From the NCBI GenBank assembly GCA_020638635.1, contig JACKIE010000011.1:914-64913 (forward strand): DNA of 64,000 nt, read 5' to 3'. Positions 5,972 through 51,273 of the stretch are shown piece after piece. The first letter of the stretch is position 1. Each line of letters opens with the position of its first letter. The notes beneath the pieces were generated by a model. It did no database searches, was not told the DNA's origin, and worked only from the letters and a program-made list of their open reading frames with translations. This DNA comes from Planctomycetota bacterium. Lineage in GTDB: Bacteria > Planctomycetota > UBA8742 > UBA2392. Both the position numbers and the translations under genes were made by a program.

Positions 5972-6209
5972 TCAATCAGACCTTCGCGTCGAATTTCCGC
6001 CACAAGTTAAATCTAGGGGGTTTATTCGCGATTTCCCCCTGTGTATACAGCAGCGACCGCGAGAGAAATCTGCACGCGAAGCTTCCGACAGAAACGCGTT
6101 CAGATCAGGCGGTGATTGAAACCGGAACGAGGCGGCAGTAATGAATGCGAGGCGCGGTTCAGCCTCGCGGCGGCCTGTTCCACGCGCCCCATGGCGTGAG
6201 GAGAGCAAG

Positions 6210-7382: not shown

Positions 7383-7388
7383 AAGCCG

Positions 7389-8195
7389 ATGGCAGGCGAG
7401 TTTCGATACATCCCGCAGGACACCCTGAACGACATCGCCAACCTGGTGAACCCGGTGCTGGACGTGATCGTCCCGTTCGTCCCGTACATTGCCGTGATGG
7501 CGTTCATCCCGGGCCTGCTGCGCGCGGTGCTGCAGTACAAGATCGAGGCTTCGAAAGGCAGCTTCATCGACGCGGAAACGGACCGCAAGCTGCGCAGCGT
7601 GCCCTTCGCGTTCGGATTCTGGGGCCTGCTGACCATGCACCTGGTGCTGGTCGGCCTGCCCGGCATGGCCCAGTCGTTCGCCGCCAGCGAAGGCGCCCGC
7701 GCCACGCTGGAAGTGACCACCATGGCATTCGCATTCTTCGTGCTGTTCGGCCTGCTGAACGTACTGCTGCGTTTCGTCCTTGACTCCGACGTGCGCAGGA
7801 AACTCGGCAAGCTTGGCTATCTCGACATGCTGATTATCGCCACGGTGCTGCTGCCGGCGCTGGGCGTAGGCCTGTACGCGTGGTCCACGGTGCGCTGGGC
7901 CAGCGTGTGGACCGGCACCGTGCTGTGGCAGAGCTGGATCGACGCCTTCACCTTCAATTTCAACAACACAGCAGCCCTGAAGGAAATGCCGGTGTTCGTG
8001 AAACTGCACATGCTGGTGGCGCCTCTGGCCGCGGCGCATGTGCTGTACAGCCGGTTGCTGGCGCACCTGATCCTGCCGCGCTTCAGCCTGTGGCGCATGG
8101 ATGCCGTGCGCGACCAGCACGGCAGCGTGGGTGCGGTTGAAGCGGCGGCGTTGATGTACGGCATCTCGGCTGAAAAGAAGGAAGCGAAGCACTAG
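7389..8195 (+). CDS. Polytopic membrane protein, NarI/DsrM-like (possible haem-b quinol-interacting subunit)
   Basis: 268 aa starting 7 nt after the preceding cytochrome gene. There are about 5 predicted TM helices with His residues in helices 2 and 5 (TMHLVLVGL; KLHMLVAPLAAAHVLYSRLLAH), as in NarI-type cytochromes b. The family assignment is tentative. Confidence 0.5.
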   Translation: MAGEFRYIPQDTLNDIANLVNPVLDVIVPFVPYIAVMAFIPGLLRAVLQYKIEASKGSFIDAETDRKLRSVPFAFGFWGLLTMHLVLVGLPGMAQSFAASEGARATLEVTTMAFAFFVLFGLLNVLLRFVLDSDVRRKLGKLGYLDMLIIATVLLPALGVGLYAWSTVRWASVWTGTVLWQSWIDAFTFNFNNTAALKEMPVFVKLHMLVAPLAAAHVLYSRLLAHLILPRFSLWRMDAVRDQHGSVGAVEAAALMYGISAEKKEAKH

Positions 8196-8212
8196 GAGTC
8201 GCAGGAAACGCG

Positions 8213-8827
8213 ATGAACGCGAAGCTGGCAGTGTTGTTCTTCTTCCTTACCGTCGGATTCTCGATGCCGATCCTGCTCGGCATTCGGGAAGTCGCGGACG
8301 TTCAGCTGCCGAACCTGCACACCGGCTACCAGCCCGAGCAGCCGATTCCCTACAGCCACCGCCTGCACGCGGGCGTGCTGAACATCGATTGCCAGTACTG
8401 CCACACCGGCGCCGACGAAGGCCGCCACGCCACGGTGCCGACCGTGGACACGTGCTGGAACTGCCACAAGACGGTTAAGGGACGTACGGCGACGGCGCAG
8501 GCGTCGATCGCCAAGCTGGCCGAGGCATACAACAGCGGCGAAGGTGTCGCATGGAAGCGTGTGCACAACAACGCCGACTTCGTGTATTTCAGCCACCAGA
8601 CGCACGTCCGCATCGCGAAGTACATCGACGCGGACGGCAACGTCACCGATGGTATTGACTGCGCCTACTGCCACGGCGACATGGCCAAGGAAGGCGTGGC
8701 CAGGCAGAAGGAGCAGCTGACCATGGGCTTCTGCATCAACTGCCACCGAGACCAGAACGCGCGCCATGAGACGGCCAAATTGCCGGCCCGGGCGCCCGTC
8801 AACGCCTGCGACGCGTGCCACAGGTAA
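8213..8827 (+). CDS. actA: Alternative complex III pentahaem cytochrome c subunit ActA
   Basis: 204 aa with an N-terminal TM helix and five CxxCH motifs (CQYCH, CWNCH, CAYCH, CINCH, CDACH). It is the first gene of an actABCDEF-ordered operon. Confidence 0.85.
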   Translation: MNAKLAVLFFFLTVGFSMPILLGIREVADVQLPNLHTGYQPEQPIPYSHRLHAGVLNIDCQYCHTGADEGRHATVPTVDTCWNCHKTVKGRTATAQASIAKLAEAYNSGEGVAWKRVHNNADFVYFSHQTHVRIAKYIDADGNVTDGIDCAYCHGDMAKEGVARQKEQLTMGFCINCHRDQNARHETAKLPARAPVNACDACHR

Positions 8828-8836
8828 AGAGAGCCG

Positions 8837-11803
8837 ATGGAAATCCGCACGAGTGACAACGACCTGAACGACATGCCGCCCGAGTTGCGACGCGAGGTCG
8901 AGATTGCCAGCAAGAGTCGCCGTGACTTCATGAAGGTCACCGGCATGGCAGCCATGGGCGCCGTGATCGCCGGCTGCACCGCCAACACCCGCGAAGTCAA
9001 GCCGCTGGTGAACAGAACAGAGGGCGTCACCCCGGGCGTCGCATACTACTACGCCTCCACCTGCCAGGGTTGCAGCGCCAACTGCGGCACTCTGATGAAA
9101 GTGCGCGACGGCCGTCCCATCAAGCTGGAAGGCAACGAAAGCCCGCTCAACGGCGGCGGCCTGTGCGGCGTGGGACAGGCCCAGCTCTGGACCCTGTACA
9201 ACCCGGACCGCCTGCACCACCCCACCAACAAGGGCGAAAAGGCCGAGTGGTCAGCGCTTGACGCCGCGGCCAAGTCCGCCATCGCCGGCGGATCGGCCGT
9301 GCTGCTGACCGGCACCATCAGCGGTCACTGCGCCAATGAAGTGATCGGCAAGTTCAAGGCCAAAGGCGGCCGTCACGTGGCCTACGACGCGGTCTCGTGC
9401 TACGCGATCGCCAAGGCCCACGGCGAAACCCACGGCACGGCCGTGATCCCGCGTTATCGTTTCGGCGAGGCGACGGTGGTGGTCAGCCTCGATGCCGACT
9501 TCCTGGGCACCTGGCTCAGCCCCGTTGAGCACGCGCGCGACTGGGCCACCCAGCGCGACCTGAAGTTCGGGCGCAAGACCATGAGCCGCCTGTTGGCTTT
9601 CGAGGCGCGCATGTCGCTGACCGGCGCCAACGCCGACGAGCGCTTCCGCATCAAGGACAGCGAACGCGGTGCCGTGCTGGTCGAGCTGGCGAACCGCGTG
9701 GGCGGCAGCTTCGGCGCGCCCGGCAAGCACAGTGTCGAGGCAGCCGCGCTGGACAGGATCGCCACCGAGCTGAAGGCCGCCGGCCGTCGCGGCCTGGTGG
9801 TGAGCGGCAGCCGCGACGTGCGCGAGCAGAAGCTGGTCAACTTCATCAACCACAAGCTGGGCGCCTACGGCACCACGCTGGACGCCACCACGCCCTCGCA
9901 GCAGAAGCTCGGCAACGACGACGAGCTGGCAAAATTGCTGAAGGACATGGAAGCGGGCACGGTCAAGACGCTGATCGTGTGGGGCGTCAATCCGGTCTAC
10001 GACCTGCCCGACGGCGCGAAGTTCAAGGAGCTGCTGGGCAAGGTGGCCAACACCATCGCGATCGGCCCCCGCGCCGACGAAACCGCCTCCGAGTGCGCCT
10101 GGATCGCCGCCGAGGACGATCCGCTGGAAAGCTGGCGCGACTTCGAGCCGGTGAAGGGCTTCCACAGCCTGGCCCAGCCCGGCGTGCGCCGCCTGTGGGA
10201 TACCCGCAACGGCTTCAGCTGCCTGCTCAAGTGGATCGGCGACCCGGACGGCAACAAGGAATACCGCGACGTGCTGAAGGCAAGCTGGGAAGCCGGCGTG
10301 CTGCGCGGCCAGGCCTGGGGCGCCGCCGTCGAGAGCGGCTACGTCAACCGCATCGCGAGCACTGCCCAGCCCGCCTTCCTCGACGCCGCCATGTCCGACG
10401 TGAAGGAAGCGGGCAACGTGGCCGATACCGGCGCCCTCGAGGTGGTGGTGTACGAGTCCTACAACCTGCGCGACGGGCGCCACGCCGTGAACGGCTGGCT
10501 GCACGAGATGGCCGACCCCATGTCGCGCATCACCTGGACCAACATGGCCTTCATGTCGCCCACCACCATGGAGCAGCAGGGCGTCGAGGAAGGTGACGTG
10601 GTCGAGGTCAGCGCCGACATCGACGGGCGCAAGGCAAGCTGCAAGGTCCCGGTCATGCGCCAGCCCGGCCAGGCCGAGGGCACGGTCGCGATCAGCCTGG
10701 GCTACGGCCGCACCAAGGCCGGCCCGATCGTCCACGGTCGCGGCAAGGAAGAAGACGCCGTTGACCCGGAGCTTCTGGATGAGGGCGTGTACGCGATCGG
10801 CGGCAACGCCTTCCCGCTGCTTGGCGGCAAGCCGGTGGCCGGTAGCCTCAGCAAGAGCGGGCGCAGCATCAGGCTGGCCAAGATCAGCGAGCACGACAGT
10901 CAGGAAGGCCGCCCGATCCTGAAGCAGACCAGCCTGGAACAGTGGCTGAAGAATCCGGCCTCGGGCAACCAGGACGAGATTCCGCCCGTGGACGTCACCC
11001 TGTGGCCGCGCTGGGAGTACAAGGGCCACAAGTGGGGCATGTCGATCGACCTGAACGCCTGCATCGGCTGCAACGCCTGCCAGGTGGCGTGCAGCATCGA
11101 GAACAACGTACCGGTGGTGGGCAAGGAAGAGGTGTGGCGCCGGCGTGAGATGCACTGGATCCGCATCGACGCCTACTATGAGGACGACCATCCGAAGGAT
11201 GGCACTCTGACCACGCACCCCAACCCGGAAGTGGGCTTCCAGCCCATGATGTGCCAGCACTGCGAGAACGCGCCCTGCGAAACGGTGTGCCCGGTGATCG
11301 CCACCAGCCACAGCGACGAGGGCCTGAACGTGCAGGCGTACAACCGCTGTATCGGCACGCGTTACTGCGCGAACAACTGCCCTTACAAGGTGCGCCGCTT
11401 CAACTGGTTCCGCTATGAACACCACAACCTGACCATGAACCTGGTGCTGAACCCGGACATCGTGGTGCGCAGCCGCGGCGTGATGGAAAAGTGCAGCATG
11501 TGCGCCCAGCGCATTTACGACGGCAAGCGTGCAGCAGCGCTGGCGGACACGAATGTGAAGGACGGCAGCATCCAGCCGGCCTGCGCCCAGACCTGCCCGA
11601 CGGACGCCATCATCTTCGGCGACCGCAACGACAAGGACAGCAAAGTCGCGCGCCTTGAGCAGGACAAGCGTCACTACGCGGTGCTGGCGGAAATCAACAC
11701 GCGCCCCACGGTCACCTACCTGACCAAAGTACGCAACCGGCCGGCCAAGGAGTCAGAACTGGCGCTGGAAGGCGGCCACGGGCACGAAGAGGGCGCACAC
11801 TAG
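8837..11803 (+). CDS. actB: Alternative complex III subunit ActB (molybdopterin-oxidoreductase-like domain fused to a 4Fe-4S domain)
   Basis: 988 aa with the Tat motif [15 protein letters not shown]. The N-terminal half is molybdopterin-oxidoreductase-like. The C-terminal half has ferredoxin Cys clusters: [37 protein letters not shown], and CSMCAQR...CAQTCP. Confidence 0.9.
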
Positions 11804-11822
11804 AGGAATGTAGGCAAGGACC

Positions 11823-13221
<1,399 letters not shown>

Positions 13222-13229
<8 letters not shown>

Positions 13230-13782
13230 TGAGAGGCCGAACCTCTTCCTCGGTGTGTTCGACGACGAAGACCACACACTGGACGCCACCAAGGCCTGCC
13301 GCGACGCGGGCTTCACGTTCCATGACGTGTTCGCGCCCTACGCCGTGCACGGGCTGGACCGAGCCATGGGCCTGCCCTTCAGCAAGATCACCTGGGTGAC
13401 CTTCCTGTGCGGCGCCATGGGCTGCATCATTGGCATCTCGGGCATGACCTATGTGACCACCTGGGACTGGCCCCTGAACATCGGCGGCAAATCGCCCTTC
13501 CCGTTCCCTGCATTCGTGCCGGTGATGTTCGAGCTGACGGTGTTGATCGGCGGCCTGTGCACCATGCTGGGCCTGTTTGCCATGTGCCGCATCTTCCCGG
13601 GCAAGAAGCCCCGCCTGTTCCACCCGCGCGTGACGGACGACCGCTTCGTGATCGCCATCGAGATGGACGAAGACTTTGACGAGGCGAGGTGCCGCGAGGT
13701 ATTCGCGAAGCACCACGCCGAGGAGGTCAAACAGGTCAACCCCGACTATGACGCCCTGGCGGCGGAAGGGGGTGTGGCGTGA
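13222..13782 (+). CDS. actD: Alternative complex III subunit ActD (DUF3341-like)
   Basis: 186 aa overlapping actC by 8 nt. The soluble N-terminal domain ([38 protein letters not shown]) is followed by two TM helices. Confidence 0.8.
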
Positions 13783-14513
13783 TTGACAAGGTGCTCAACA
13801 AAGCCATCGACATCCAGGCCGCGCAGTTGGACAAGGCCAAGGACGTCGTCTTGCGCGCGCACGAGACTTACAGCCCGCGCGCGTGGATCGGCTTGGGCGT
13901 GCTGCTGGGCGCGATCGCCGCGGCGCTTGCGGCGGGCTTCCTGCAGCGCGACTTCAGCAAGCGCAACATCGAGTACTTCCCGGACATGGGCTACAGCGAA
14001 GCCTGGGAAAGCCAGCTCACCAACGACTACAGCAAGAAGTACGCGGACTCCACGCCCGAACTGCCGCCCGCCATCGAGAAGTGGGGCACGGCCGAGATGG
14101 CGCCGCCTGTGGGGACCGTCTACCGAGGCCAGCAGCGGCTGGAAGTCCCGGCTGAGGTCCCGACCGGCGACAACGAGCGCCTGGCCTGGGCGCGCGCGAA
14201 CCTGAGCAACCCGTACGCCAACACCGGCGGGGAAGATCAAGCCAGAGTACTGCAGCGCGGCAAGAACCTGTTCCGCATGAACTGCCAGGGCTGCCACGGC
14301 GTGGACGGCGTGGGCATGGCGCCGGTCACAAAGTACGGAATCGGCGCGCCGACGCTGGCCAACGCCACCGTGCGCGACAAGTACAAGGACGGCGAGATCT
14401 TCTACATCATCACGTTCGGGATCCGCACCATGCCGGCGCACAAGAACCACGTCAAATACGACGATCGCTGGAAGCTGATCCGCTACCTGCGCGAGTTGCA
14501 GAAGGGCAAGTAG
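13779..14513 (+). CDS. actE: Alternative complex III monohaem cytochrome c subunit ActE
   Basis: 244 aa with a GTG start overlapping the actD stop (GTGA). It has an N-terminal TM segment and a single CQGCH motif with a downstream Met ligand context (GIRTMPAH). Confidence 0.8.
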   Translation: MIDKVLNKAIDIQAAQLDKAKDVVLRAHETYSPRAWIGLGVLLGAIAAALAAGFLQRDFSKRNIEYFPDMGYSEAWESQLTNDYSKKYADSTPELPPAIEKWGTAEMAPPVGTVYRGQQRLEVPAEVPTGDNERLAWARANLSNPYANTGGEDQARVLQRGKNLFRMNCQGCHGVDGVGMAPVTKYGIGAPTLANATVRDKYKDGEIFYIITFGIRTMPAHKNHVKYDDRWKLIRYLRELQKGK

Positions 14514-14516
14514 GCC

Positions 14517-15752
14517 ATGAGCGAAGTGCACATCGACGAGCCCGAGAAGTTCAGCTTCCCAGCCCTGGTGAAGATCGCCTGTCTGGCGGCCACCGGCGTG
14601 GGGCTTGCAACCTTCGGCCTCTCGTTCATCGGCGGCGCCGACCTCGCGTTCGGCGGCTGGGCCATCGCGGCCTGGTACGTGCTCGGCTTCCCGCTGTTCG
14701 GCATGTTCTTCCTGGTGATCAACAACCTCAGCAGCGCCGGCTGGCACGTCACCATGAAGCGCGTGCCCGAGGCCATGCTGCAGTATTTCCCGGTCGGCCT
14801 GCTCACCATCGGCGTACTGGCGCTCTCGTTCCTGTTCAGTGAACACCAGTTGTACGAGTGGGCCCACCCCGTGGACCACGGTGACCTGCACAGCACGCTG
14901 ATCGCCGGCAAACAACCGTGGTTGAACGTTCCGTTCTTCCTGGGGCGCACGCTGCTGTACTTCGTGCTGTGGGTGGCGTTTGCCTTCATCATGACCCGCG
15001 CCTCGCGCAAGCAGGACGTGGACGGCGAAGTAAAGCACACCTTCACCCAGAAGAACCTGTCGGCGCCGTTCGCCATCGTGTTCGGCCTGTCGGTCACCTT
15101 CGCCGGCATGGACTACATCAAGTCCGTCGAGCCCACCTGGTTCAGCACCATGTTCGGCGTGTACCAGTTCGCCGGCATCGTCGAGAGCGGCTTTGCCATG
15201 CTGATCCTGCTGCTGCTGCTGCTGCGCCGCCTGGGCTACCTGCGCACAGCCGTGAACGAAAACCACTTCCACAACCTGGGAATCTGGCTGCTCGCGGCCG
15301 GCACCTTCTGGGCGTACATCTGGTTCTGCCAGTTCATGCTGATCTGGTACTCGAACATCCCCGAGGAAACGGCGCACTTCATCGCGCGCTGGAACGGCCC
15401 CTGGTTCTGGGTGACGTTCGTGCTGAACCCGCTTTTGAACTGGGCGCTGGTGTTCTTCATCCTGCTGCCGCGACCCAATAAGCGGAACACGAAGATGCTG
15501 GCGATCGCCGCGGTGATCGCCCTTGTGGGCCGCTTCGTGGACCTGTGGCAGTACGTGACGCCCAGGCCCCACGCCAACGCGGAAGGCATGCCGACGCCGC
15601 ACTGGATGCCCTACACGACTTTCTGGCAGATCGGCATCGTGTTGGGCCTGATCGGGCTGTTCACTTTCGTAGCTCTGAAGGCCCTCGAGAAAGCGCCCTT
15701 GCTGGCGAAGAAGGACCCGTACTTCGAAGAGTCGGTCCATCACCACCTGTAA
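14517..15752 (+). CDS. actF: Alternative complex III membrane subunit ActF (NrfD-like paralogue)
   Basis: 411 aa polytopic membrane protein. It is the last gene of the act operon, starting 4 nt after actE. Confidence 0.8.
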   Translation: MSEVHIDEPEKFSFPALVKIACLAATGVGLATFGLSFIGGADLAFGGWAIAAWYVLGFPLFGMFFLVINNLSSAGWHVTMKRVPEAMLQYFPVGLLTIGVLALSFLFSEHQLYEWAHPVDHGDLHSTLIAGKQPWLNVPFFLGRTLLYFVLWVAFAFIMTRASRKQDVDGEVKHTFTQKNLSAPFAIVFGLSVTFAGMDYIKSVEPTWFSTMFGVYQFAGIVESGFAMLILLLLLLRRLGYLRTAVNENHFHNLGIWLLAAGTFWAYIWFCQFMLIWYSNIPEETAHFIARWNGPWFWVTFVLNPLLNWALVFFILLPRPNKRNTKMLAIAAVIALVGRFVDLWQYVTPRPHANAEGMPTPHWMPYTTFWQIGIVLGLIGLFTFVALKALEKAPLLAKKDPYFEESVHHHL

Positions 15753-15760
15753 CGCAGGGC

Positions 15761-15851
15761 AACCGCAAATTACCAATAACCAGTTACCAATGACCAATGG
15801 GGTTTCCCCGGCATTGGTAATTGGTTATTGGTAATTGTTCATTCGCTGTTC
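15761..15851. repeat. AT-rich palindromic element, copy A (TTACCAATAACCA family)
   Basis: The left arm is AACCGCAAATTACCAATAACCAGTTACCAATGACCAATGG and the loop is GGTTTCCCCGG. The right arm, CATTGGTAATTGGTTATTGGTAATTG...CGCTGTTC, is its inverted complement. The element starts 9 nt after the actF stop. Confidence 0.85.
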
Positions 15852-15869
15852 GAACCAAAGGGGCGTGCC

Positions 15870-17282
15870 ATGCTGCGAGCTTTCCTCGCCTTGCTGCTGA
15901 TTTGCGGCGGGCTTTCCGCACAGGACAACCATTACTGGACCCACCAATTCGGCACGCGCTCAAGCCTGATGGGCGGAGCCGTGGTCGGCGGCGTCGAGGA
16001 CACCAGCGCGTGTTACTACAATCCCGGGCGCTTGGGCTGGATTACCAACGACTCGCTGAAGGTCAGCGCCGACGGCTATCAGCTCAGCACCCTGACCATC
16101 AAAGACGGCGCAGGCAAAGGCCAGAACCTGACCAGCACGGAGGGCGACATCATCCCGCTGGCAGGCTCGGGAGTGTTCCTGTTTGCACAACCCCGCATCG
16201 CGTTGGGTTTCCAGATCATGGCCCGCCAGTTCTTCAACGCCAACGTCAGCACGCGCGTGGAGGCTATCCGCAACGCGATTGACGACGCGCGCTCCCCGGG
16301 CGACGAGCAGTTCATCGGCAGCTTCCAATTCCGCACCAGCACGGAAGAGTACTGGGCCGGGCTCAGCTTCGGCTGGGCGATCACGGACTGGCTCGGCGTC
16401 GGAGTCACCCACTTCGGCTGCCTGCGCTTTGAAGAACAGAACCTGGACGTCACCACCCGCGCCGTCGGCGGCTCGGGACAGACCTTCGGCGCGGACAACA
16501 TCGCCGGCTTCGATTTCTGGAACGTGCGCACGCTCTGGAAGCTCGGCGTCTCGGCCCAGTTCGGCGGCCTGAAGATGGGCCTGACCTGCACCACCCAGAG
16601 CGTCAACTTGTTCGGCGGGGCCACCGTGCGCCGTCAGATCAGCGTGGATGACCTCGACATCGACGGCAACGGCACCAGCGACCAGCTCGAGGCCAACGAC
16701 CGCCGCGACGGCGTAGCCACCCAGTACCGCTCGCCATGGTCGTTTGCCACCGGCGTCGATTACGACTTCGGGCCCGTGGTGCTGGCTGTGGCGGCAGAGT
16801 GGTTCTTGCCCGTTGGGCGCTACTCGCCCGCTGCGCCGGCCGGCGACAAAGCGTTCTTCTTGGGCCTGCCCTCCAGCGAAAGCAGCCGCGAGCTGCTGAC
16901 CCTGTACGACGCCAAGCGCGGCGCTTTCAACGTGGCGATCGGCCTGGAGACCGAGTTCAGCCAGGACTGGTCCGGCTTCTGGAGCATGCGCCGCGACGCC
17001 GCGGCGGATTATCTCGACCATCACGGCCTGCACTTTGGCGTCAGCACCTGGGACCTGTTCCACTTCGACACGGGCATCGCCTTCACCACACGCCAGGACA
17101 ACGGCGCCGCCAAGCATGAGCTGATGATCGGTCTGCAGTTCGTGCTGGGCGCCGGGCGCACCGAGCAGCCGATCAGCTTCGACAACGTATCCGAGTCGCG
17201 CCTCTTGACCGGCAGTACCAAGCGCACGGACATCAGCTACTTCGCAATCAGCCTGCTGGTGGGATACACGTATTACTTCTAG
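15870..17282 (+). CDS. Outer-membrane beta-barrel protein (unknown family)
   Basis: The ATG at 15870 gives the signal peptide MLRAFLALLLICGGLSAQD. The sequence has an alternating beta-strand-like pattern throughout and the C-terminal OMP signature ...LLVGYTYYF. Confidence 0.7.
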   Translation: MLRAFLALLLICGGLSAQDNHYWTHQFGTRSSLMGGAVVGGVEDTSACYYNPGRLGWITNDSLKVSADGYQLSTLTIKDGAGKGQNLTSTEGDIIPLAGSGVFLFAQPRIALGFQIMARQFFNANVSTRVEAIRNAIDDARSPGDEQFIGSFQFRTSTEEYWAGLSFGWAITDWLGVGVTHFGCLRFEEQNLDVTTRAVGGSGQTFGADNIAGFDFWNVRTLWKLGVSAQFGGLKMGLTCTTQSVNLFGGATVRRQISVDDLDIDGNGTSDQLEANDRRDGVATQYRSPWSFATGVDYDFGPVVLAVAAEWFLPVGRYSPAAPAGDKAFFLGLPSSESSRELLTLYDAKRGAFNVAIGLETEFSQDWSGFWSMRRDAAADYLDHHGLHFGVSTWDLFHFDTGIAFTTRQDNGAAKHELMIGLQFVLGAGRTEQPISFDNVSESRLLTGSTKRTDISYFAISLLVGYTYYF

Positions 17283-27991: not shown

Positions 27992-28555
27992 ATGGCTCGC
28001 ATCGAAGGTTCCAACCCGCGTGGTGTTTACCAGCGCGCCGTGTTCTGGTTCATGAAGCGTGTGCTCGGGCGCGTGCCTGAGCCCGTCAAAATCCTGGCGT
28101 TCAGCCCGACCGTGTTCAAAGGCCGCACCGGCATGGAGCGCGCCCTGATGACGCTGTCCGTGCCGCCCGGCCTGGTCACGCTGGCGCAGATCCGCGTGGC
28201 CCAGCGCATCGGCTGCCCCTTCTGAGTGGACATCAACTCTGCCGTGGGCAGCAAGTCGGGTCTCACACACGCGCGCATCGCGGCCCTGGCCGACTGGCGC
28301 AACAGCGACGTCTTCAACAGCATCGAGCGCGACGTGCTCGCCCTGGCCGACGCCATCACCGACACCCCCGCCAACGTGGACGAGGGCCTGTTCGGCCGCC
28401 TGCTGATCGCGCTGGGGCCGCGGCAGCTGGTCGAGCTGACCAACGCCATCGGCTGGGAAAACCTGCGCGCCCGCACCAACCGCGTGTTTGACGCGCAATC
28501 GGAAAGCTACTACGACGGCGCCCTGTGTATGCTGCCGGCCAGAAAGGTCGCGTGA
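27992..28555 (+). CDS. Carboxymuconolactone decarboxylase/AhpD-like family protein with in-frame UGA (28223-28225), a candidate selenoprotein (CxxU)
   Basis: ATG at 27992 with AGGAG at 27981. Two same-frame track ORFs (to 28225, and from 28226) are joined only by TGA, within RIGCPF[TGA]VDIN at the family's CxxC position. A hairpin lies at 28236-28256. The stop overlaps the sigma start (TGATG). Confidence 0.6.
28236..28256 (+). promoter_or_regulatory. SECIS-like hairpin downstream of UGA 28223
   Basis: ACTCTGCC-GTG-GGCAG(CA)AGT: 8 bp with a 2-nt bulge, starting 10 nt after the UGA. Its core is shared with 48840-48858. Confidence 0.5.
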
Positions 28556-29406
28556 TGCAGGAAGAAAGCTTCTTCGACCAGCAGCGTTCGTACCTGTTCG
28601 CGATCGCTTACCGCATGCTGGGCAGCGCCGCCGACGCCGACGACATGGTGCAGGAGGCCTGGCTGCGCTGGCAGCGCGACGACCGCAGCGGCGTCGCCAA
28701 CCCGCGCGGCTACCTGGCCGGCGTGGTCACGCGCCTGTGCCTCGACCGCCTGCGCGAGCTGAAGCGCCGGCGCGAAGAGTACGTGGGCCCCTGGTTGCCT
28801 GAGCCGCTGCTGACCCAGGCCCCGGCCGACGGCGGCGAGCTGGCGGAAAGCCTGTCACTGGCGTTCCTCACCATGCTGGAGCGCCTGACGCCCGTGGAGC
28901 GCGCGGTGTTCCTGCTGCGCCAGGTGTTCGGCTACGAGTACGCCGAGATCGCGGCCATCGTCGGTAAAACCGAGGCCAACTGCCGCCAGCAGTTCAGCCG
29001 CGCGCAGAAAGCCATCGCCGAGGCGCGCCCGCGTTTCGAGACTTCGCGCGAGGCCCAGCAGCGCATGCTGCAGGGCTTCCTGGAGGCAGTGGGCAGCGGC
29101 GACCTTTCGCGCATCGAGAGCATCCTGCGTGAGGACGTCGAGTTCATCTCCGATGGCGGCGGCAAGGTGATCGCCGCGCGCCGCGTGCTCCACGGCCGCA
29201 GCGAGGTTGCCAAGTTCCTGCACAGCCTGGCGCAGCGCAGCCCGGAGGGGGTCAGCTTCGAGTTCGCGCCGGTGAACGGGCAGCTTGGCCTGCTGCTGAA
29301 GCTGCAGGGCAAGCTGGAGACGGTGTTCGTGATCGAGTCGGTGGGCGGGACCGCGCAGACCATCCGCGCCATCCGCAACCCGGACAAGCTTGCAAGGCTG
29401 GCCTGA
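28555..29406 (+). CDS. ECF sigma factor, group ECF41 (SigJ-like) with fused C-terminal SnoaL/NTF2-like domain
   Basis: 283 aa with region 2 (YLFAIAYRMLGSAADADDMVQEAWLRW), the linker YVGPWLPEPL, region 4 (ERAVFLLRQVFGYEYAEIAAIVGKTEANCRQ), and a C-terminal extension of about 100 aa. Confidence 0.88.
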   Translation: MQEESFFDQQRSYLFAIAYRMLGSAADADDMVQEAWLRWQRDDRSGVANPRGYLAGVVTRLCLDRLRELKRRREEYVGPWLPEPLLTQAPADGGELAESLSLAFLTMLERLTPVERAVFLLRQVFGYEYAEIAAIVGKTEANCRQQFSRAQKAIAEARPRFETSREAQQRMLQGFLEAVGSGDLSRIESILREDVEFISDGGGKVIAARRVLHGRSEVAKFLHSLAQRSPEGVSFEFAPVNGQLGLLLKLQGKLETVFVIESVGGTAQTIRAIRNPDKLARLA

Positions 29407-41957: not shown

Positions 41958-42485
41958 CTAGAACCTGATCACGCTGACGGTCTGGATGTCGTCGAACGGA
42001 AGGCTGGCGGTACGGTTGGCGGTACGCACAGCCTCGGCGTCCGGGGCCTCGTACAGGCAGATCATGCGTTTGCGGTCCTTGGCGAAGTAGCTGCGCAGGA
42101 ACTTCACGCGGTGCTGCTGCAGGCACCAGGCGAAGGCGTCTTCCTGGGCCTGCACGTCGTCGAACGCAACCGGCTGCTCCCAGCTGCGGGTCACAAGCAC
42201 CAGCTCACCGGCTTCAGGCTGAACCAGGTCGGGCTCCGGTCCGTGAATCGTGGCGCTGTACACATGGCTGAAGGGCGCGTCGCTGTTTCGGTTGGCGGTG
42301 CGCACGGACTCCGCATCAGGTGCGCGGAACAGGCAATCCAGCCCGCGCCCGTCGCGAGACAAATAGGCACGCACGTGTTCGACACGATGAATGTCTGAGC
42401 ATCCCCGCAATCGCGCACGCAGAGCCTGGATGTCGTCAAAGTTGGCGGCCTGTGGCAGTTCGCGCTCGACGATTACCCACTCCAT
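41958..42485 (-). CDS. Tandem DUF4242-like domain protein
   Basis: 175 aa made of two internally homologous halves sharing FDD(I/V)QA...H(R)V...CL(F/Y)xAPDAE(S/A)VRTANR...PF. The start overlaps the stop of the upstream regulator by 1 nt. Confidence 0.7.
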   Translation of the reverse strand: MEWVIVERELPQAANFDDIQALRARLRGCSDIHRVEHVRAYLSRDGRGLDCLFRAPDAESVRTANRNSDAPFSHVYSATIHGPEPDLVQPEAGELVLVTRSWEQPVAFDDVQAQEDAFAWCLQQHRVKFLRSYFAKDRKRMICLYEAPDAEAVRTANRTASLPFDDIQTVSVIRF

Positions 42486-45484
42486 CAGCGACTCCTCCCC
42501 GCTCCGGCCACGGCTTCAACCTTTTCTCTGACCTTGCGCGCCAGTCGCTCGGCCGGGAGCTTTCCTAGTGCGGCAACCTGCTGCTTTGCCGCCCGGGTAT
42601 CGCCGTTTGCCTCCGCGGCCTGCAGCAGCAGCAGCCTGGCGGCGGCGGCATCTGTGAGGCGCTGCAACAGCTCGGCCAGCTGCAATGCTTCCGTGGCGCG
42701 CGCCGCCGCCTGGCCGGTGCGGGCCTGCCGCACGTCCAGCGCGGCCATTTGAATAAGCGCGTGCAGCAGGTGCTGCTTGGCGTCTACCTCGCGCAGCTGC
42801 GCGACGTCGCGCTCGAACTCGGATTGCGCGTCCTGCCCCGCAGCCTGGCGCGCGACATCCAGCATCACCGCGGCGCAAGGCGCTTCGCTGCCGCCGCGCA
42901 GCTTCTGGCCGATCTCAAGCAACTCCTTGGCCAGCGGCAGCGCGGCGTCGGTATTGCCGCGTTCGAGCTCAAGCAACAGCCGGTGATCCAGCACCTGGAA
43001 TTCGGAGACGCGGTCGCCGCGCGCACGTGCCAGCGACTGCGCGCGCTCGAACAGCCCGGCGGCTTCTTCCACTTTCCCCTCGTGCAGTCGCAGCATGCCG
43101 GCCGCGTGCAGCATGCCCGCGGATTCCACGCCGCTGCGGCGCGCCATGGCGTTGGCTTCGAGCAGCAGGGCCTCGGCCTGACCGAGGTCGCGCTCGAGCA
43201 TGGCGAGACAGCGGGCGGCCTCGGCCATGGCGAGCGCGCGCTGCTCGGGGCCGGCGTCGCGGCTGGCGACCTCGGCACGCATCATCTGGCGCTGGGCGTC
43301 GCCCCATTCGCCCCCCTCCCAGCGCAGCCAGGCCGCCATGTGGAAGCCGAGCCGCGCGTGCTCAAGGCAGCCGAGGTCCAGCGCGTGCTCGGCCAGTTGC
43401 TGCAGCTCGTCGGCGGTTCGGCCCAGCTTCTCGGGCTTGCGGGCGCCCAGCTGTACCTCGTGCAGTTCCAGCATCAGGCGTGTGCGCTGCGGGTCATCGA
43501 GCTTTGCGGCGAAAGCCATGCCGCGGCGCGCGAAGCCGTCGGCCTCGCTGCCCGCGTACAGGCGCAGGCAACGGCGACCGGCAGTCACGCAGCTTTCGGC
43601 GGCCAGCTTGAACTCGCCGGCCTGCGAGGCGTGGTGGGCGACGTCGGCGGCGATGCGGCCGTCCGGGTCTTCGCGCGCCGCCAGCAGTTGCGCGACTTTC
43701 AGGTGCATCAGGCGTCTACGCGGGCCGGACAACTCGTCGTAGATGGCGCGGCGTGTGATCTCGTGAGGGAATGAGAACGCGCCCAGCGGCGTGCGCGCGT
43801 CGGGTGCGCTCTGCATCAGGGCGTAGCGCTCGAGGATCTCCAGCGCTTCCACCAGTTGCTCCGGGGATTGGTTCGCCAGCTCCGCCAGCAGATCTACGGG
43901 CGCGAAACACCCCACCACGGCTCCCCAGCGCAGTATCTCGAGCGCGCCGTCCGGCAGGGTTTCGGTGCGTTCGCGGATCGCGCCCGTGATTGACGCCGGC
44001 AGCGAATCGCGCCCTTGTGCGCCACGTGCGAGTTCGAGGGCAAACAGTGGGTTGCCTCCGCTGTCGCGGAAGATCGCGTCCGCGTCGGCATCAGGGGCGA
44101 CGCTGCGGATCAGCTTGCCCGCATCGGCCTGGTGCAGGGGCGCAAGCTCGCGCTCGTGCAGCAGGCCGTCGCGGTTGAACTGGCGCACCAACCGCAAGGC
44201 AGCATCGTTGTCCGGCAACTCGCCGGCGCGGCCCGCCAGCAGCAGCAGCAGCGGGCGGTGTTTGTTCGTGCGCACGGCGTAGTGCAGCAGCTCGATGCTG
44301 GCGGCGTCGAGCCATTGCACGTCATCCAGCATCAACACCACGGGCGGCGCGGAATGCGCCCGTGCGGCGATCAACTCGCTGATTGCGCCGAACAGCTGCT
44401 CCCGGCTGCCGCCTTGTCGTGCGGCCGCGCCCAGCAGCGGGGCCAACTCTCCCGCCAGCTCGGCGCCGATGGCATGTTTCGAGATGCGGCCGAGCGCGTC
44501 GATCCACGGTCCATAGGGTCGATCCTGCTCGATCTCGAACGAGCGCCCGGCCAGCACCGTGGCGCCGGCCCGCGCAAGCTGCTGAGCAAGCTCATCCATC
44601 AGCCGGGACTTGCCGATTCCAGGCGGCCCTGACAGCAGTAGGCCATGGGCGCGGCGCTTCTCGCGTGCGGATTCGGCCAGTGCGGCGATTTCACCGAGTT
44701 CCGTGTCGCGCCCGACCAGGGGGGCGCGGATGGCGGTCGCCGTTTCGGCGCGCCGGGCGGGTTCCGCGGCGGGTGTCCTGGGCTGAACCTGTGTGGCCTG
44801 CAGCAACTCGGGTCCCGGTTGCTCGCCCAACTCCGCCAGAAGGCGCCTGGCGGCCTCCAGCTGATTCTGCGCCTCGCGGTGACGGCCGGCAGCAACCAGC
44901 AGCCGCACCAATTGCGCCTGCACAGGTTGGCTGAACGGATCGACGTGCGCCAGCCGGCGCGCCAAGGGCAGGGCGCTATCCGGGTCGGGCTTTCGGCGCA
45001 CGCCCTCGGCCAGCAGGCGGGCGTGGGCGCGGCGCGCGGTTTCGCGCTGGCCCGCGACCCAGCCGTGGAAATCCGTGAACTCGGTGAGTTCCAATCCTTC
45101 CAGGAACTCGCCACGCACCTGGGCGAGCAATCGCTCTAGCTCGTCGTCACTGAGCTTGCCCGGCTCAGCCGCGCACAGGAGGTGCAAGTCTACAAGCGCG
45201 CCTTGCGCCTCGAATACCACCTCTTCGCGGGTAGCCTTGAGGCGCTCAATGTCGTCGTTCACCAGCGGGCGCAGCTTGGAGAGGCACCAGCGCAGCGCGC
45301 CGCGCGGGTCGTCGGCCACGTCCCACAGCAGGTCGCAGAGGCGGTCGCGCCGCTGCGGCTTGGCCGTGACCGCCAGGTAGGCCAGCAGCGCGCGGGTTTT
45401 CTTTGACTGCGGCAGCTCCACAGCCTCGCCGTCGCGCAGCACGCGCACCTCACCCAGCAACCCGATTTCCAGACCGGCGTCCAT
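42485..45484 (-). CDS. SARP/AfsR-like regulator: winged-helix DNA-binding domain, BTAD, AAA+/STAND ATPase and TPR-like domains
   Basis: 999 aa. The N-terminus is LLGEVRVLRDGEAVELPQSKKTRALLAYLA...LLWDVADDPRGALRWCLSKLRP. Walker A is LLLSGPPGIGKSRL and Walker B-like is VVLMLDDVQWLD. The C-terminal half is long and helical-repeat. Confidence 0.85.
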   Translation of the reverse strand: MDAGLEIGLLGEVRVLRDGEAVELPQSKKTRALLAYLAVTAKPQRRDRLCDLLWDVADDPRGALRWCLSKLRPLVNDDIERLKATREEVVFEAQGALVDLHLLCAAEPGKLSDDELERLLAQVRGEFLEGLELTEFTDFHGWVAGQRETARRAHARLLAEGVRRKPDPDSALPLARRLAHVDPFSQPVQAQLVRLLVAAGRHREAQNQLEAARRLLAELGEQPGPELLQATQVQPRTPAAEPARRAETATAIRAPLVGRDTELGEIAALAESAREKRRAHGLLLSGPPGIGKSRLMDELAQQLARAGATVLAGRSFEIEQDRPYGPWIDALGRISKHAIGAELAGELAPLLGAAARQGGSREQLFGAISELIAARAHSAPPVVLMLDDVQWLDAASIELLHYAVRTNKHRPLLLLLAGRAGELPDNDAALRLVRQFNRDGLLHERELAPLHQADAGKLIRSVAPDADADAIFRDSGGNPLFALELARGAQGRDSLPASITGAIRERTETLPDGALEILRWGAVVGCFAPVDLLAELANQSPEQLVEALEILERYALMQSAPDARTPLGAFSFPHEITRRAIYDELSGPRRRLMHLKVAQLLAAREDPDGRIAADVAHHASQAGEFKLAAESCVTAGRRCLRLYAGSEADGFARRGMAFAAKLDDPQRTRLMLELHEVQLGARKPEKLGRTADELQQLAEHALDLGCLEHARLGFHMAAWLRWEGGEWGDAQRQMMRAEVASRDAGPEQRALAMAEAARCLAMLERDLGQAEALLLEANAMARRSGVESAGMLHAAGMLRLHEGKVEEAAGLFERAQSLARARGDRVSEFQVLDHRLLLELERGNTDAALPLAKELLEIGQKLRGGSEAPCAAVMLDVARQAAGQDAQSEFERDVAQLREVDAKQHLLHALIQMAALDVRQARTGQAAARATEALQLAELLQRLTDAAAARLLLLQAAEANGDTRAAKQQVAALGKLPAERLARKVREKVEAVAGAGRSR

Positions 45485-45490
45485 GTGCGG

Positions 45491-47074
45491 CTAGTTTGTT
45501 AAAAGGAAGCGGCGTACTTCCAGCATGAATTTCGACCATGCCGGCTCGTCCTCAAGCAGCAGGTGGTTGCGGCTTTCCAACGGCACGAAGCGTGCGCCGG
45601 CAATCCCGCCCGCGAGGCGGCGGCCTTCCTCGAAGGGCACGGTTTCGTCCCCCGCGGCGTGCAGCACCAGGGTGGGCGCTTGCACCCGGCCCAGCAGCTC
45701 CGTGACGTCCGTGTCGCCGCTGATGGTGCGGATTGCCACGGCGTTCTCCGGCGAGCACGACACGCGCTGCAGCTTGTTGAACCAGTCGGCTTGCTCGGGC
45801 GTCGCCCCCGGCATGAACAATGAGGTGAACAGCTGCCGGAAGGCCGGATTCTCCTGCCCCCAGCCGTAGCGCATCAGGTTCAGCATCGCCTCGGCGGCCT
45901 GCAGCTTCGCGGGCGTTGCGCGTTTGCGCCAGCCGCGCGCGTAGCCACCGTACAGCACGAGTTTGCTGACGCGTTCCGGGTGGCGAGCCGCGTAGGCCAC
46001 CGCTACGGCGCAGCCCTGGGAGATGCCCAGGATCGGCACGCGTTCAGCGCCGACAGCGTCCATCACGGTCGCAAAGTCCTCAACGAAACGATCGAACGCA
46101 AACGTGGGTACATTCCAGTCGCTGAGCCCGTTGCCGCGCTGGTCATGGCGCAGCAGCGTGAAGTCTTTCGAGAGGTCGCGCGCCAGGTGACGCCAAAGGG
46201 GGCTGTACCAGTCGTACTCAAGATGCGTCAGCCAATTGCTGGTCTTTACCAGCAGGGGTCCCCGGCCGATGGTGGCGTAAGCGAGTTGAACGCCGTCGGA
46301 GGCGCGACAAAAACCGATGCGCTGCGCCGGCGGCGCGTCGTGCGGCCCCCCGGACTGCGCTTCGCGAATCGCGGTGGTGAGCAGGCCCACCGGCTCAACC
46401 TGGAGCCGTTTCAGGGTGTGCTGCGCCGCGGCGTAGTGTTCCTCGGCGTCGCGCGCGCGGCCGAGGCGCACCAACAGCCGCACGACGCGAGCCTGGCTGT
46501 CCTCGACCTGCGGCTCCAGGCGCGCCAGAATGCGGGCATGCTGCAGCGCGCGCTCGGGGTCGTGCTCCAGTTTGTCCAGCAGGGCTCGCAGTGTCCCTGC
46601 GCGCATGCGGCGAGCGCGCTGCCGCTGGGCCAGGCACCAGGCGTGGAACTCATGGTGGTCCGGCAACTCGACGCCCTCCAGGAACTCGCCCTGGGTCTGC
46701 TCGAGCACGGCTTCTAGCTGAAGCGGGTCCATGGCCGTGGCGTTTTTCCAGGCGTGCTCCAGGTCGGACAAGTCGAGGTCAAGCTCGGTGGTTTCCAGCC
46801 GCACGCTGGTGCGGTCGGCGACCACGCGGGCGTGTCCGTCGCCGTCCAGCGCGGGGCGCAGCTTCGACAGGCACCAGCGCAGCGCGCCGCGCGGGTCGTC
46901 GGCGACGTCCCACAGCAGGTTGCACAATTGCTCGCGAGTGTGGGGCTTGCCGCTCACGGCCAGCCAGGCCAGCAGCGCGCGCGCCTTGCGCGACTGCGGC
47001 AGATCGACAGGAACGCCGTCGTGCAACACGCGAAGCTCACCGAGCAGCTTGATTCTCAGATGGTTTGCGCCCAT
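45491..47074 (-). CDS. SARP-like winged-helix and BTAD regulator fused to an alpha/beta-hydrolase domain
   Basis: ATG at 47074. The N-terminus is paralogous to the neighbouring regulator (LLGELRVLHDGVPVDLPQSRKARALLAWLA...LLWDVADDPRGALRWCLSKLRP). The C-terminal hydrolase fold has the nucleophile elbow GISQGC. Confidence 0.8.
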   Translation of the reverse strand: MGANHLRIKLLGELRVLHDGVPVDLPQSRKARALLAWLAVSGKPHTREQLCNLLWDVADDPRGALRWCLSKLRPALDGDGHARVVADRTSVRLETTELDLDLSDLEHAWKNATAMDPLQLEAVLEQTQGEFLEGVELPDHHEFHAWCLAQRQRARRMRAGTLRALLDKLEHDPERALQHARILARLEPQVEDSQARVVRLLVRLGRARDAEEHYAAAQHTLKRLQVEPVGLLTTAIREAQSGGPHDAPPAQRIGFCRASDGVQLAYATIGRGPLLVKTSNWLTHLEYDWYSPLWRHLARDLSKDFTLLRHDQRGNGLSDWNVPTFAFDRFVEDFATVMDAVGAERVPILGISQGCAVAVAYAARHPERVSKLVLYGGYARGWRKRATPAKLQAAEAMLNLMRYGWGQENPAFRQLFTSLFMPGATPEQADWFNKLQRVSCSPENAVAIRTISGDTDVTELLGRVQAPTLVLHAAGDETVPFEEGRRLAGGIAGARFVPLESRNHLLLEDEPAWSKFMLEVRRFLLTN

Positions 47075-47229
47075 CGGGACCAGTTTTGCCGTTTTCACAC
47101 GGTTCCGGGCTGAAAAACTTTCGTTTTCCTGCGTTACCACGGTCACTCAAACGCTTCCTCACACGGTCGCACCCTACCTTTCTCCCGTGGGCGGATGGGC
47201 CGCCCGAACAAACAGACGGGAGCAACACA

Positions 47230-48147
47230 ATGACCACCGCTATCAAGTACAGCTTCGAAGACGTCCTGGCCGCTTCACAGAAAATCAACTGGAAGTTCGA
47301 GGACATCATCGGGGGCAACAAGCGCCTCGACTTCAGCCGGCCCTTCCTGCCCGAGGGCCTGGCGCGAACCGAGGAGCTGGCTTTCCTGAACGCCGACGAG
47401 CGCCGGGCGCTCAGCCAGATTCGCGGCAACGCCTACCTGAACATTTTCGGGCTGGTCGAGGAATTCATCCTGCCCTTCGTGCTCGACCACGCCCGCCCCA
47501 GCCTGGCCGGCGACGACCATCGCACCAGGGCGCTGCTGCAGTTCGCCGGCGAAGAGGCCAAGCACATCCACCTGTTCAAGACCTTCGCCGAGGAGTTCCG
47601 CAAGGGCTTCGGCCACGAGTGCCAGATGATCGGCCCGCCCCAGGCCATCGCCCGCGAGGTACTGAGCCACCACCCGCTAGGCGTGGCGCTGGTGATCCTG
47701 CACATCGAGTGGATGACCCAAAGGCACTTCATCGAGGCCATCACCGGCGACCTCGAGATCGACCCGCAGTTCAAGAGCCTGCTGCGCCATCACTGGATGG
47801 AAGAGGCCCAGCACGCGAAGCTCGACACACTCATGGTCGAGGCCATCGCCGACAACTGCACCCCCGGCGAGATCGAGCACGGCGTGGACGAGTACCTGGC
47901 GATCGGCGGCTTCATCGACGAAGGTCTCAAGGCCCAGACCCAGTTCGACCTCGACGCCTTTGAACGCGCCACCAGCTGCGTACTCAACGTGGAGGAGCGC
48001 GAAGAGTTCCTGCGCGTGCAGCACCAGGCCAATCGCTGGACCTACCTCGGGACCGGCATGTCGCACCCCGAGTTCCTGAAAACCGTGGGCATGCTGAGCG
48101 AGACCCAGCGCGCCCGCCTTGAACAAGTCGCGCCGGCGTTCTGCTAG
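47230..48147 (+). CDS. Ferritin-like diiron oxygenase (AurF/PF11583-like)
   Basis: 305 aa from the ATG at 47230 (GGGAG upstream). It has two E...ExxH pairs: LVEEF...GEEAKHIH and HIEWM...MEEAQHAK. Confidence 0.7.
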   Translation: MTTAIKYSFEDVLAASQKINWKFEDIIGGNKRLDFSRPFLPEGLARTEELAFLNADERRALSQIRGNAYLNIFGLVEEFILPFVLDHARPSLAGDDHRTRALLQFAGEEAKHIHLFKTFAEEFRKGFGHECQMIGPPQAIAREVLSHHPLGVALVILHIEWMTQRHFIEAITGDLEIDPQFKSLLRHHWMEEAQHAKLDTLMVEAIADNCTPGEIEHGVDEYLAIGGFIDEGLKAQTQFDLDAFERATSCVLNVEEREEFLRVQHQANRWTYLGTGMSHPEFLKTVGMLSETQRARLEQVAPAFC

Positions 48148-48200
48148 CGCCCGAGGGGCCCCGTCGTGGGGCGGGGCCCCGCCTTTCCAACCTTCAACAC

Positions 48201-48998
48201 ATGGAAAAAGCCATGAACAACGTATGCACTCTGACCCCGGATCGCGACTACCTGAAGAACATCGTGCGCGAGACATACACGGCCGTCGCGGACGACCCGG
48301 CCACGCGGTTCCACTTCCATGTCGGCCTGGAGTACGCGGTGCGGTTGCTGGGCTATGACCGCGCGGAACTGGAGTCGCTGCCGCAGATCGCCACCTCGCG
48401 TTTCGCCGGGCTTGGCAACCCGCTGGCGATCGGTCCTCTCCACCCGGGTGAAACCGTGGTGGACCTGGGCAGTGGCGCGGGCATGGACCTGCTTCTGGCC
48501 GCGCGGCGCGTCGGCCGGCTCGGACGTGTCATCGGTGTAGACCCGACGCCCGCCATGCGGAGCACCGCCTGGCAGGCCGCGTGCGAAGCCGGTCTGGCGG
48601 AGCAGGTCTGGATGCTGGAGGGCGAGGTGGAGTCGATTCCGCTGACGGACGGTGTGGCCGACGTGGTAGTCAGCAACGGCGTGCTGAACCTGGGCGTGGA
48701 TAAAGCCCGCGTCTTCCGCGAGATCGCCCGCGTGCTGAAACCGGGCGGGCGAGCCTACCTGGCCGACGCCATCATCGACCGCCCCTTCGGCCCCGCCACG
48801 CTGAGCGACCCAGCCCTGTGGGCTTCCTGAGTGGCGGGCGCTCTGCCGGTGGCAGAGCTGCACAGCCTGATGGAACAGGCCGGCCTGAAGGACGCGCGCA
48901 TCACGGCCGAGTTCAAGAGCTTCCAGGGTACCACGTCCGAACTGCAGGTGGCCCCGTCCATGAAGCTGCGAGCGGCCAACTTCACCGGACGAAAGTAG
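48201..48998 (+). CDS. ArsM/UbiE-like class I methyltransferase with in-frame UGA (48828-48830), a candidate selenoprotein
   Basis: SAM motif VVDLGSGAGMDL. The ORF stops at TGA within LWAS[TGA]VAGAL, where relatives have a conserved Cys. The frame stays open for 55 more codons to TAG 48996-48998. A hairpin lies at 48840-48858. Confidence 0.6.
48840..48858 (+). promoter_or_regulatory. SECIS-like hairpin downstream of UGA 48828
   Basis: GCTCTGCC-GGT-GGCAGAGC: a perfect 8-bp stem starting 10 nt after the UGA. It has the same CTCTGCC-GNN-GGCAG core as 28237-28251. Confidence 0.5.
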
Positions 48999-49063
48999 AC
49001 GCGAGGTTTGACCCGTTTCATCAGTCCGCCTTTCCAGCCTATTTGGCAGGCGGGGATTTCGAC

Positions 49064-49110
49064 CCAAGGTGGCCCTGCCGTTCCTGCAGGAATGGCAGGC
49101 GGCACCTTGG
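49064..49110 (+). terminator. Long near-palindromic hairpin between the methyltransferase gene and dnaK
   Basis: CCAAGGTG..CCTGCCGTTCC-TGCA-GGAATGGCAGG..CACCTTGG. The inner stem is 10-11 bp (one G-U) and the outer stem is 8 bp. T-rich sequence follows (GTAGTTTATCT). Confidence 0.4.
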
Positions 49111-49233
49111 GCAGTAGTTTATCTAAACTCTTTGGAATCAATAGGTTGCAGTGCCGACCCGCAGGGTTGGCACCGGGCTTGCATACAGTACCACAACTAT
49201 TGAGCGGGCGCCTAAGCCCGGCAGGAGAACATC

Positions 49234-51177
<1,944 letters not shown>

Positions 51178-51191
51178 AATACGACATGCAT

Positions 51192-51227
51192 CTGCAATGG
51201 CGCCGGAACATCCCGGCGCCATTTGCA
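51192..51227. terminator. Hairpin terminator after full-length dnaK (also faces the convergent island operon)
   Basis: TGCAATGGCGCCGG-AACATC-CCGGCGCCATTTGCA: an 11-bp perfect core stem extendable with one bulge, followed by TTTGC. Confidence 0.6.
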
Positions 51228-51273
51228 TTTGCAGGCTCTTCCCGGACGTGTCAGGTGCAACCACGCCGATAGT

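Follow-up and report, generated by a model that had tools for sequence, protein, structure and literature searches.

A Planctomycete ArsM-Like Methyltransferase Gene Whose In-Frame UGA Is Probably Decoded as Selenocysteine

A gene for an ArsM-like methyltransferase that closes at a UGA, with its frame still open beyond that codon, raises a simple question: does the protein end there, or is the UGA read as selenocysteine (Sec)? The locus lies on contig JACKIE010000011.1 of a Planctomycetota assembly (GCA_020638635.1), within the 64-kb stretch of DNA (64,000 nucleotides) that was analyzed as a whole and that we refer to here as the window. An earlier note had placed an open reading frame at 48201..48830, closing at TGA 48828-48830 and followed by 55 further in-frame codons up to TAG 48996-48998, and these coordinates were found to be correct when rechecked. 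Through a comparative analysis of this region, we conclude that 48213..48998 very probably encodes one ArsM/AS3MT-fold SAM-dependent methyltransferase of ~261 residues in which the UGA at 48828-48830 is decoded as Sec.

Two ATG codons on the plus strand, at 48201 and 48213, are candidate starts. We favor the latter because all 23 aligned homologues begin, without exception, at the residue that it encodes, Met5. The complete gene, 48213..48998 on the plus strand and ending in TAG, would thus probably specify 261 residues, the 206th being Sec (265 residues and U210 if ATG 48201 is used). The product has a single domain, a single in-frame UGA (48828..48830) in the UxxG motif LWAS-U-VAG, and a C terminus that reads NFTGRK immediately before the TAG. 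In the read-through product, the Sec is set in the context ...LSDPALWAS-U-VAGALPVAELHSL...NFTGRK, the peptide directly across the site is LWAS-U-VAGALPVAELHSLMEQAGLK, and the tail as a whole reads LSDPALWAS-U-VAGALPVAELHSLMEQAGLKDARITAEFKSFQGTTSELQVAPSMKLRAANFTGRK before the stop.

The methyltransferase matched the Pfam families Methyltransf_31, Methyltransf_11, and Methyltransf_25, and its nearest solved structures, as found with phmmer, were the arsenite methyltransferases 5evj, 4fr0/4fs8, and 4kw7 (E values of ~1e-25 to 1e-27). These Pfam and ArsM structure matches (E of 5e-27) assign it to the SAM-dependent class I methyltransferase fold, as a homologue of ArsM. Its best NCBIfam match was NF008823, "arsenite methyltransferase," at 198.2 bits, which is below the 263-bit cutoff of that model.

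The proposal that the UGA replaces a conserved Cys, which the earlier note had made, was borne out by the homologues. A search over 5.8 billion proteins returned thousands of these, of which 23 were aligned. In 18 of 18 full-length homologues (261 to 323 residues) the column of the UGA is an invariant Cys within LWAAC[I/V]xGAL, and alignment to ArsM itself, by phmmer, matches the UGA to the Cys within "...GEC(L/I)xGAL" (CxxGAL) in 5evj and 4fr0. The CxxGAL Cys, Cys206 of human AS3MT (hAS3MT) and Cys224 of CmArsM, is an As(III)-binding active-site residue (PMC4211708); in the window protein this column is filled by Sec, as UVAGAL. The note had also held that read-through restores a C-terminal subdomain, and indeed the full-length Cys homologues align along the entire tail, those of 261 to 270 residues matching the window protein from one end to the other. 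This part of the protein, the VAGALPVAEL...NFTGRK subdomain, is encoded by the 55 codons at 48831..48995 on the plus strand and is delimited by the homologue alignment, the in-frame tails of relatives, and dN/dS.

The five closest homologues (63 to 94% identity) are from independent assemblies. All are annotated as proteins of 205 to 208 residues that end just before the Cys column. When their DNA was examined, all five were found to carry TGA at the Cys column, followed by 55 to 56 conserved in-frame codons (VAGALPxAE...NF). More distant relatives were sought by scanning one genome per GTDB species with two peptide patterns, and among the best 80 of >505 loci so recovered, TGA stood at the Cys column in 20 further cases. 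Within these best 80, the distant TGA forms came from Gemmatimonadota, Chloroflexota, Acidobacteriota, Actinomycetota, Nitrospirota (Thermodesulfovibrionales), Planctomycetota, and Deferrimicrobiota, and all 20 are single-domain proteins with 50 to 70 in-frame codons after the TGA. Overall, 28 sequences, which represent at least seven phyla and include two near-duplicate assemblies, have TGA at this one column, and 60 have Cys there.

A lack of coding conservation past the TGA in relatives would have spoken against the proposal; the tail is instead in frame and under purifying selection. Among six sequences of the planctomycete clade, dN/dS was 0.14 to 0.67 in the tail, versus 0.11 to 0.46 for the 205 codons that precede the UGA. 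The TGA is also unchanged in contigs of four activated-sludge or wastewater metagenome runs from four different studies. One of these runs (X4) contains a strain variant that, near the TGA, differs from the window at third codon positions only and has the TGA intact.

We then consider what might direct Sec to this codon. Directly downstream lies the perfect hairpin GCTCTGCC-GGT-GGCAGAGC, which the earlier note had described and which we found to be placed as it said: 9 nt separate the TGA from the stem, and the first stem base is the tenth after the TGA. The core of this putative bacterial SECIS element (bSECIS) spans 48840..48858 on the plus strand, with an 8-bp stem (48840-48847 paired with 48851-48858) and an apical GGU loop (48848-48850); folding predicts a lower stem reaching to about 48833-48867. 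Published bSECIS rules specify an apical loop of 3 to 9 nt, a stem of 4 to 16 bp, a minimum free energy (MFE) of -7.5 kcal/mol or lower, a G among the first two nucleotides of the loop (usually G[G/U]), and a UGA-to-loop distance of 16 to 37 nt (PMC13188914). The window hairpin lies within every one of these limits: its loop is GGU, its stem is 8 bp, the loop is 17 nt downstream of the UGA, and the MFE of the hairpin alone is -13.4 kcal/mol. There was no Rfam SECIS match in the 64-kb window at the gathering threshold.

Taken singly, the sequence folds only modestly better than its shuffles (z = -1.96; 8/200). Because this significance is weak, the case for a SECIS element rests on comparative data. 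Across 26 distinct Sec forms aligned without gaps, 87% of the cells in the helix columns (13 to 20 with 24 to 31) are paired, and compensatory two-sided changes occur at five of the eight helix pairs, for example, C-G in 14 sequences versus G-C in 11 and C-G in 13 versus U-A in 6. Neither the observed pairing nor the covariation was matched in any of 500 shuffles, and all slid registers were far worse. The hairpin does sit within conserved coding sequence (ALPxAE), and its conservation is partly due to the protein. As a control, we used 11 Cys forms of the same subfamily, whose peptide is nearly identical (GALPExEL); there, 54.5% of cells were paired and covariation was absent. A hairpin conforming to the SECIS rules in the exact register was present in 19 of 26 Sec forms but in none of these 11 noncanonical Cys forms and in none of 49 canonical ArsMs. 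Since Cys forms with nearly the same peptide show no such hairpin, the hairpin follows the UGA rather than the protein sequence. Recoding of the UGA to Sec by a SECIS element inside the open reading frame is, on these comparative grounds, well supported.

By the standard bacterial pathway, the hairpin at 48840-48858 would bring SelB, together with Sec-tRNA(Sec), to a ribosome that has paused on the UGA, and translation would then run on through the last 55 codons to the TAG at 48996. Within the 64-kb window, we found no selA, selB, selD, or tRNA-Sec gene (Pfam on the large open reading frames, Rfam, and ARAGORN). The only tRNA found in the window was a tRNA-Arg (Rfam gathering threshold and ARAGORN), and the sole translational GTPase detected by Pfam among its large open reading frames was LepA. 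Similarly, ARAGORN found no tRNA-Sec beside the methyltransferase gene in 24 Sec-form loci. The window does contain a second selenoprotein candidate, a YciW/AhpD-like protein of 187 residues (27992-28555) with an in-frame TGA at 28223-28225 in the motif GCPF-U (CxxU). Its best NCBIfam match, at 98 bits and below the cutoff, was NF053654, "YciW-related (seleno)protein." Eleven nucleotides past its TGA is the hairpin CTGCC-GTG-GGCAG, which resembles the CTGCC-GGT-GGCAG core of the methyltransferase hairpin. This second candidate with its similar hairpin supports the view that UGA can be decoded as Sec here. The gene that comes after it (28525-29406) encodes an ECF-type sigma factor.

Could the TGA be explained without Sec? 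TGC and TGT are each one base from TGA, and the relatives are annotated as 205-residue proteins by gene callers and NCBI alike; one might suppose, then, that a nonsense mutation has truncated the methyltransferase and left the 55 codons as a decaying remnant. Such a pseudogene is scarcely credible, however, when 28 sequences and at least seven phyla share a TGA at this column, the tail is in frame with dN/dS values like those of the body, the covarying hairpin is restricted to TGA forms, and the TGA is stable across independent metagenomes. Given the Cys column, the recurrent TGA, the selected tail, and the independent metagenomes, we exclude both a pseudogene and a sequencing error. It is also highly improbable that the gene is split, with a stop at TGA 48828 and a coupled restart at GTG 48831 that would yield a separate 55-residue chain, the two chains then assembling. 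The planctomycete clade does have a possible start, GTG, right after the TGA (TGAGTG), but the corresponding codon is ATC, ATT, or ATA in 20 of the 28 Sec forms (with the two near-duplicate assemblies counted), and none of these three is a usual start. Moreover, the break would fall exactly on the catalytic Cys column and delete that residue from the enzyme, and the hairpin conforms to the SECIS rules.

The UGA might instead be read through as Trp, Cys, Arg, or Gly, by a near-cognate or suppressor tRNA or under a reassigned code, and hairpins downstream of a stop codon can stimulate read-through of this kind. We consider this very unlikely. The YciW/AhpD-like gene itself terminates in TGA, as does one methyltransferase orthologue (L007); TGA is an ordinary stop, too, in these genomes, and a reassigned code is therefore excluded. 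A UGA placed precisely on a Cys column is the hallmark of Sec/Cys pairs, a catalogued selenoprotein family shares the UxxG motif, and the second candidate in the window has a CxxU motif of its own. Decoding as Sec is thus the reading that we adopt below.

The earlier note had further observed that the other arsenite-binding cysteines of ArsM are not evident in this protein. This proved to be so, and the trait marks a whole subfamily. At the column of CmArsM C72 and hAS3MT C61 (GCGNP), the window protein has Leu71 (RFAGLGNP), and at the column of CmArsM C174 and hAS3MT C156 (SNCVINL), it has Gly160 (SNGVLNL). Canonical ArsMs, in which the C72 and C174 columns are both Cys, account for 49 of the best 80 of >505 GTDB loci, and in all 49 of these the codon at the third ligand column is TGC or TGT, never Sec. 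The remainder of the 80, together with the window protein and seven other loci, make up a noncanonical set of 36 distinct sequences. In this set, the C72 column is Val, Leu, Ile, or Thr, the C174 column is Gly in 36 of 36, Trp207 is invariant, and Phe68 is nearly so; Sec occupies the third column in 25 sequences (~70%) and Cys in the other 11. A maximum-likelihood tree groups the canonical enzymes in a single clade (support of 100/98); Sec forms occur in every noncanonical lineage, and the Cys forms fall mostly in one largely proteobacterial clade adjoining the planctomycete Sec clade. Scores against NF008823 divide in the same manner: canonical sequences reached 322 to 354 bits and pass the 263-bit cutoff, whereas all noncanonical ones scored 185 to 236 bits and fail it. 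The noncanonical sequences are relatively nearer to the NCBIfam fusion-selenoprotein models. In this sample of the best 80 of >505 loci, then, Sec seems to be confined to the branch that lacks the two other As(III) ligands. The suspicion that a lone Sec at this position would be unusual chemistry did not hold up: in this subfamily a lone Sec is the norm, and it fits a catalogued selenoprotein type, the UxxG "arsenite methyltransferase."

What might such an enzyme methylate? From the alignment to solved ArsM structures, the Sec would stand at the site of the substrate-binding Cys, beside the SAM methyl group, and would most likely hold a soft metalloid or chalcogen atom by a single Se-X bond and position it for methyl transfer from SAM. 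With Leu71 and Gly160 in place of the two other ligands, the enzyme cannot build the three-thiolate As(III) site found in canonical ArsM. PMC3877260 gives the number of thiolates needed as three for As(III), two for MAs(III), and one for DMAs(III); free arsenite would therefore suit a lone selenolate less well than would a chalcogen species or a metalloid that is one-coordinate or conjugated to a thiol. Speculatively, free arsenite is a less likely substrate than a metalloid that already carries a substituent or a thiol conjugate, or than a species of selenium or tellurium. Since the branch also fails the NCBIfam arsenite methyltransferase cutoff, arsenite may not be the substrate at all.

A bolder proposal, possible but to our minds doubtful, is that the noncanonical single-Sec ArsM-like proteins constitute a distinct enzyme family in which Sec is the prevailing and possibly ancestral residue and for which arsenite is not the substrate. 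Its defining residues would be Gly at the C174 column, Val or Leu at the C72 column, Trp207, and Phe68. The lone selenolate of such a family, next to SAM, could methylate a one-coordinate species, examples being dimethylarsenite, a Se-Se or Se-Te adduct of selenium or tellurium, or a persulfide-like substrate, and in planctomycetes the methyltransferase would act with the diiron oxygenase encoded next to it.

This oxygenase, an AurF-like protein of 305 residues (47230..48147, plus strand; PF11583, 27 bits; named "diiron oxygenase" by NCBI), is the upstream neighbor of the methyltransferase. Beyond it, on the opposite strand, are genes for two SARP-type regulators (45491-47146 and 42485-45484), and downstream of the methyltransferase, on the plus strand, is dnaK (49234-51177; HSP70, E of 3e-245). 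The oxygenase is very strongly conserved from phylum to phylum; it has more than 8,000 homologues and is 65 to 72% identical to proteins of Acidobacteriota and Planctomycetota. It adjoins the methyltransferase in five loci of the planctomycete clade (L001, L003, L004, L005, and L007) and in three Cys-form loci, and this pairing is absent in the other Sec lineages. At three loci in Acidobacteriota, an oxygenase that is 65 to 70% identical occurs without any methyltransferase, divergent from genes for an ECF sigma factor and a Ser/Thr kinase; downstream of it is OsmC at two of the loci and DinB at the third. We had considered the oxygenase as a functional clue for the family as a whole and rejected it, the link being limited to the planctomycete clade and the three Cys-form loci. 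Nor did Pfam searches of 113 flanking open reading frames at the 36 noncanonical loci reveal a family-wide partner, an ars operon, or a consistent selenium or tellurium context; the neighbors included ArsR-type HTH proteins (three), rhodaneses (two), and thioredoxin-like proteins (two). With no consistent neighborhood, genomic context does not fix the substrate.

Several other features of these loci deserve mention. One Cys form of 323 residues (P0009) has a C-terminal extension, …VDEYLNRWTFLGSGMTHPRFV…APAFC, that resembles the last ~45 residues of the oxygenase with an internal part missing. Fusion, a remnant, or misassembly could each account for this extension, which is a hint that the oxygenase and methyltransferase genes are connected. 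In the window, the methyltransferase gene has GC-rich inverted repeats on both sides, at 48150-48190 and 49060-49110. The first of these, GGGGCCCCG-N8-CGGGGCCCC, lies after the oxygenase stop and before the methyltransferase start, and the second is a long palindrome, CCAAGGTGGCCCTGCCGTTCCTGCAGGAATGGCAGGCGGCACCTTGG, located 3′ of the TAG. Neither contains a T-run, and a terminator scan found no terminators; the repeats may be REP-like elements. A minus-strand open reading frame of 708 residues (49138-51264) lies antisense to dnaK and matches the Pfam family "NAD-GH" (PF10712; E of 5e-162), which we take to be a recognized spurious family arising antisense to dnaK; at this overlap, dnaK is the real gene. 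Finally, a cluster elsewhere in the window (6141-17282) encodes a cytochrome c, a large protein with Mo-pterin-Fe4S4 and 4Fe-4S dicluster domains (8837-11803), and an NrfD-like membrane subunit (11823-13229); the whole resembles a module of the alternative complex III (Act) or polysulfide reductase type.

How does the window gene relate to selenoproteins that have been described before? In PMC9312934 and PMC13188914, an "arsenite methyltransferase" selenoprotein with one Sec in a UxxG motif is catalogued, going back to Fomenko et al. (2007, Science), and the Zhang reviews list it. The window protein shares with this type (PRK11873/NF008823) the ArsM-like fold, a single Sec at the As-binding Cys column (here U-V-A-G), and a SECIS hairpin directly downstream and inside the open reading frame. 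It differs in scoring 198 bits against the NF008823 cutoff of 263 and in lacking Cys at the C72 and C174 columns, traits that the catalogued example, WP_011987699.1, may also have. The canonical enzymes (4fr0, 4fs8, 5evj, and human AS3MT) likewise share the fold, the SAM-binding motifs, and the CxxGAL ligand position, but hAS3MT binds As(III) by C61, C156, and C206 (PMC4211708), and the window protein has Leu and Gly at two of these three positions.

NCBIfam models also exist for ArsM-fusion selenoproteins with a UxxG motif, as indicated by a citation of Haft and Tolstoy (2025) within PMC13188914. They comprise the "exception" models NF041537 (ArsM/AhpD), NF047649 (methyltransferase/UXPK-star), and NF041536 (ArsM/DUF2284). 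All carry the UxxG Sec in the methyltransferase domain, over which the window protein scores 155 to 189 bits. However, the fusion proteins are distinguished by an additional domain and one or two additional Sec residues, and their cutoffs are 460 to 575 bits; the window protein, with its single domain and one Sec, falls far below these. Other noncanonical Sec forms match the fusion models better than they match NF008823, an example being L057, at 273 bits versus 185. The methyltransferase is not mentioned in Zhang 2006 or Peng 2016. Selenoproteins of this type are thus already known, and the window gene is a further, unannotated member that belongs to a widespread noncanonical branch.

These findings bear on how such genes are recorded. 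Public records name this gene and its relatives as 205-residue "methyltransferase domain-containing" proteins, and no NCBIfam model captures the single-domain form. Present pipelines truncate the Sec forms, which make up ~70% of the sampled noncanonical branch (25 of 36 distinct sequences), and "arsenite methyltransferase" may misname what the selenoprotein forms do. For the organisms themselves, this gene adds to the evidence for Sec decoding by the Planctomycetota of activated sludge.
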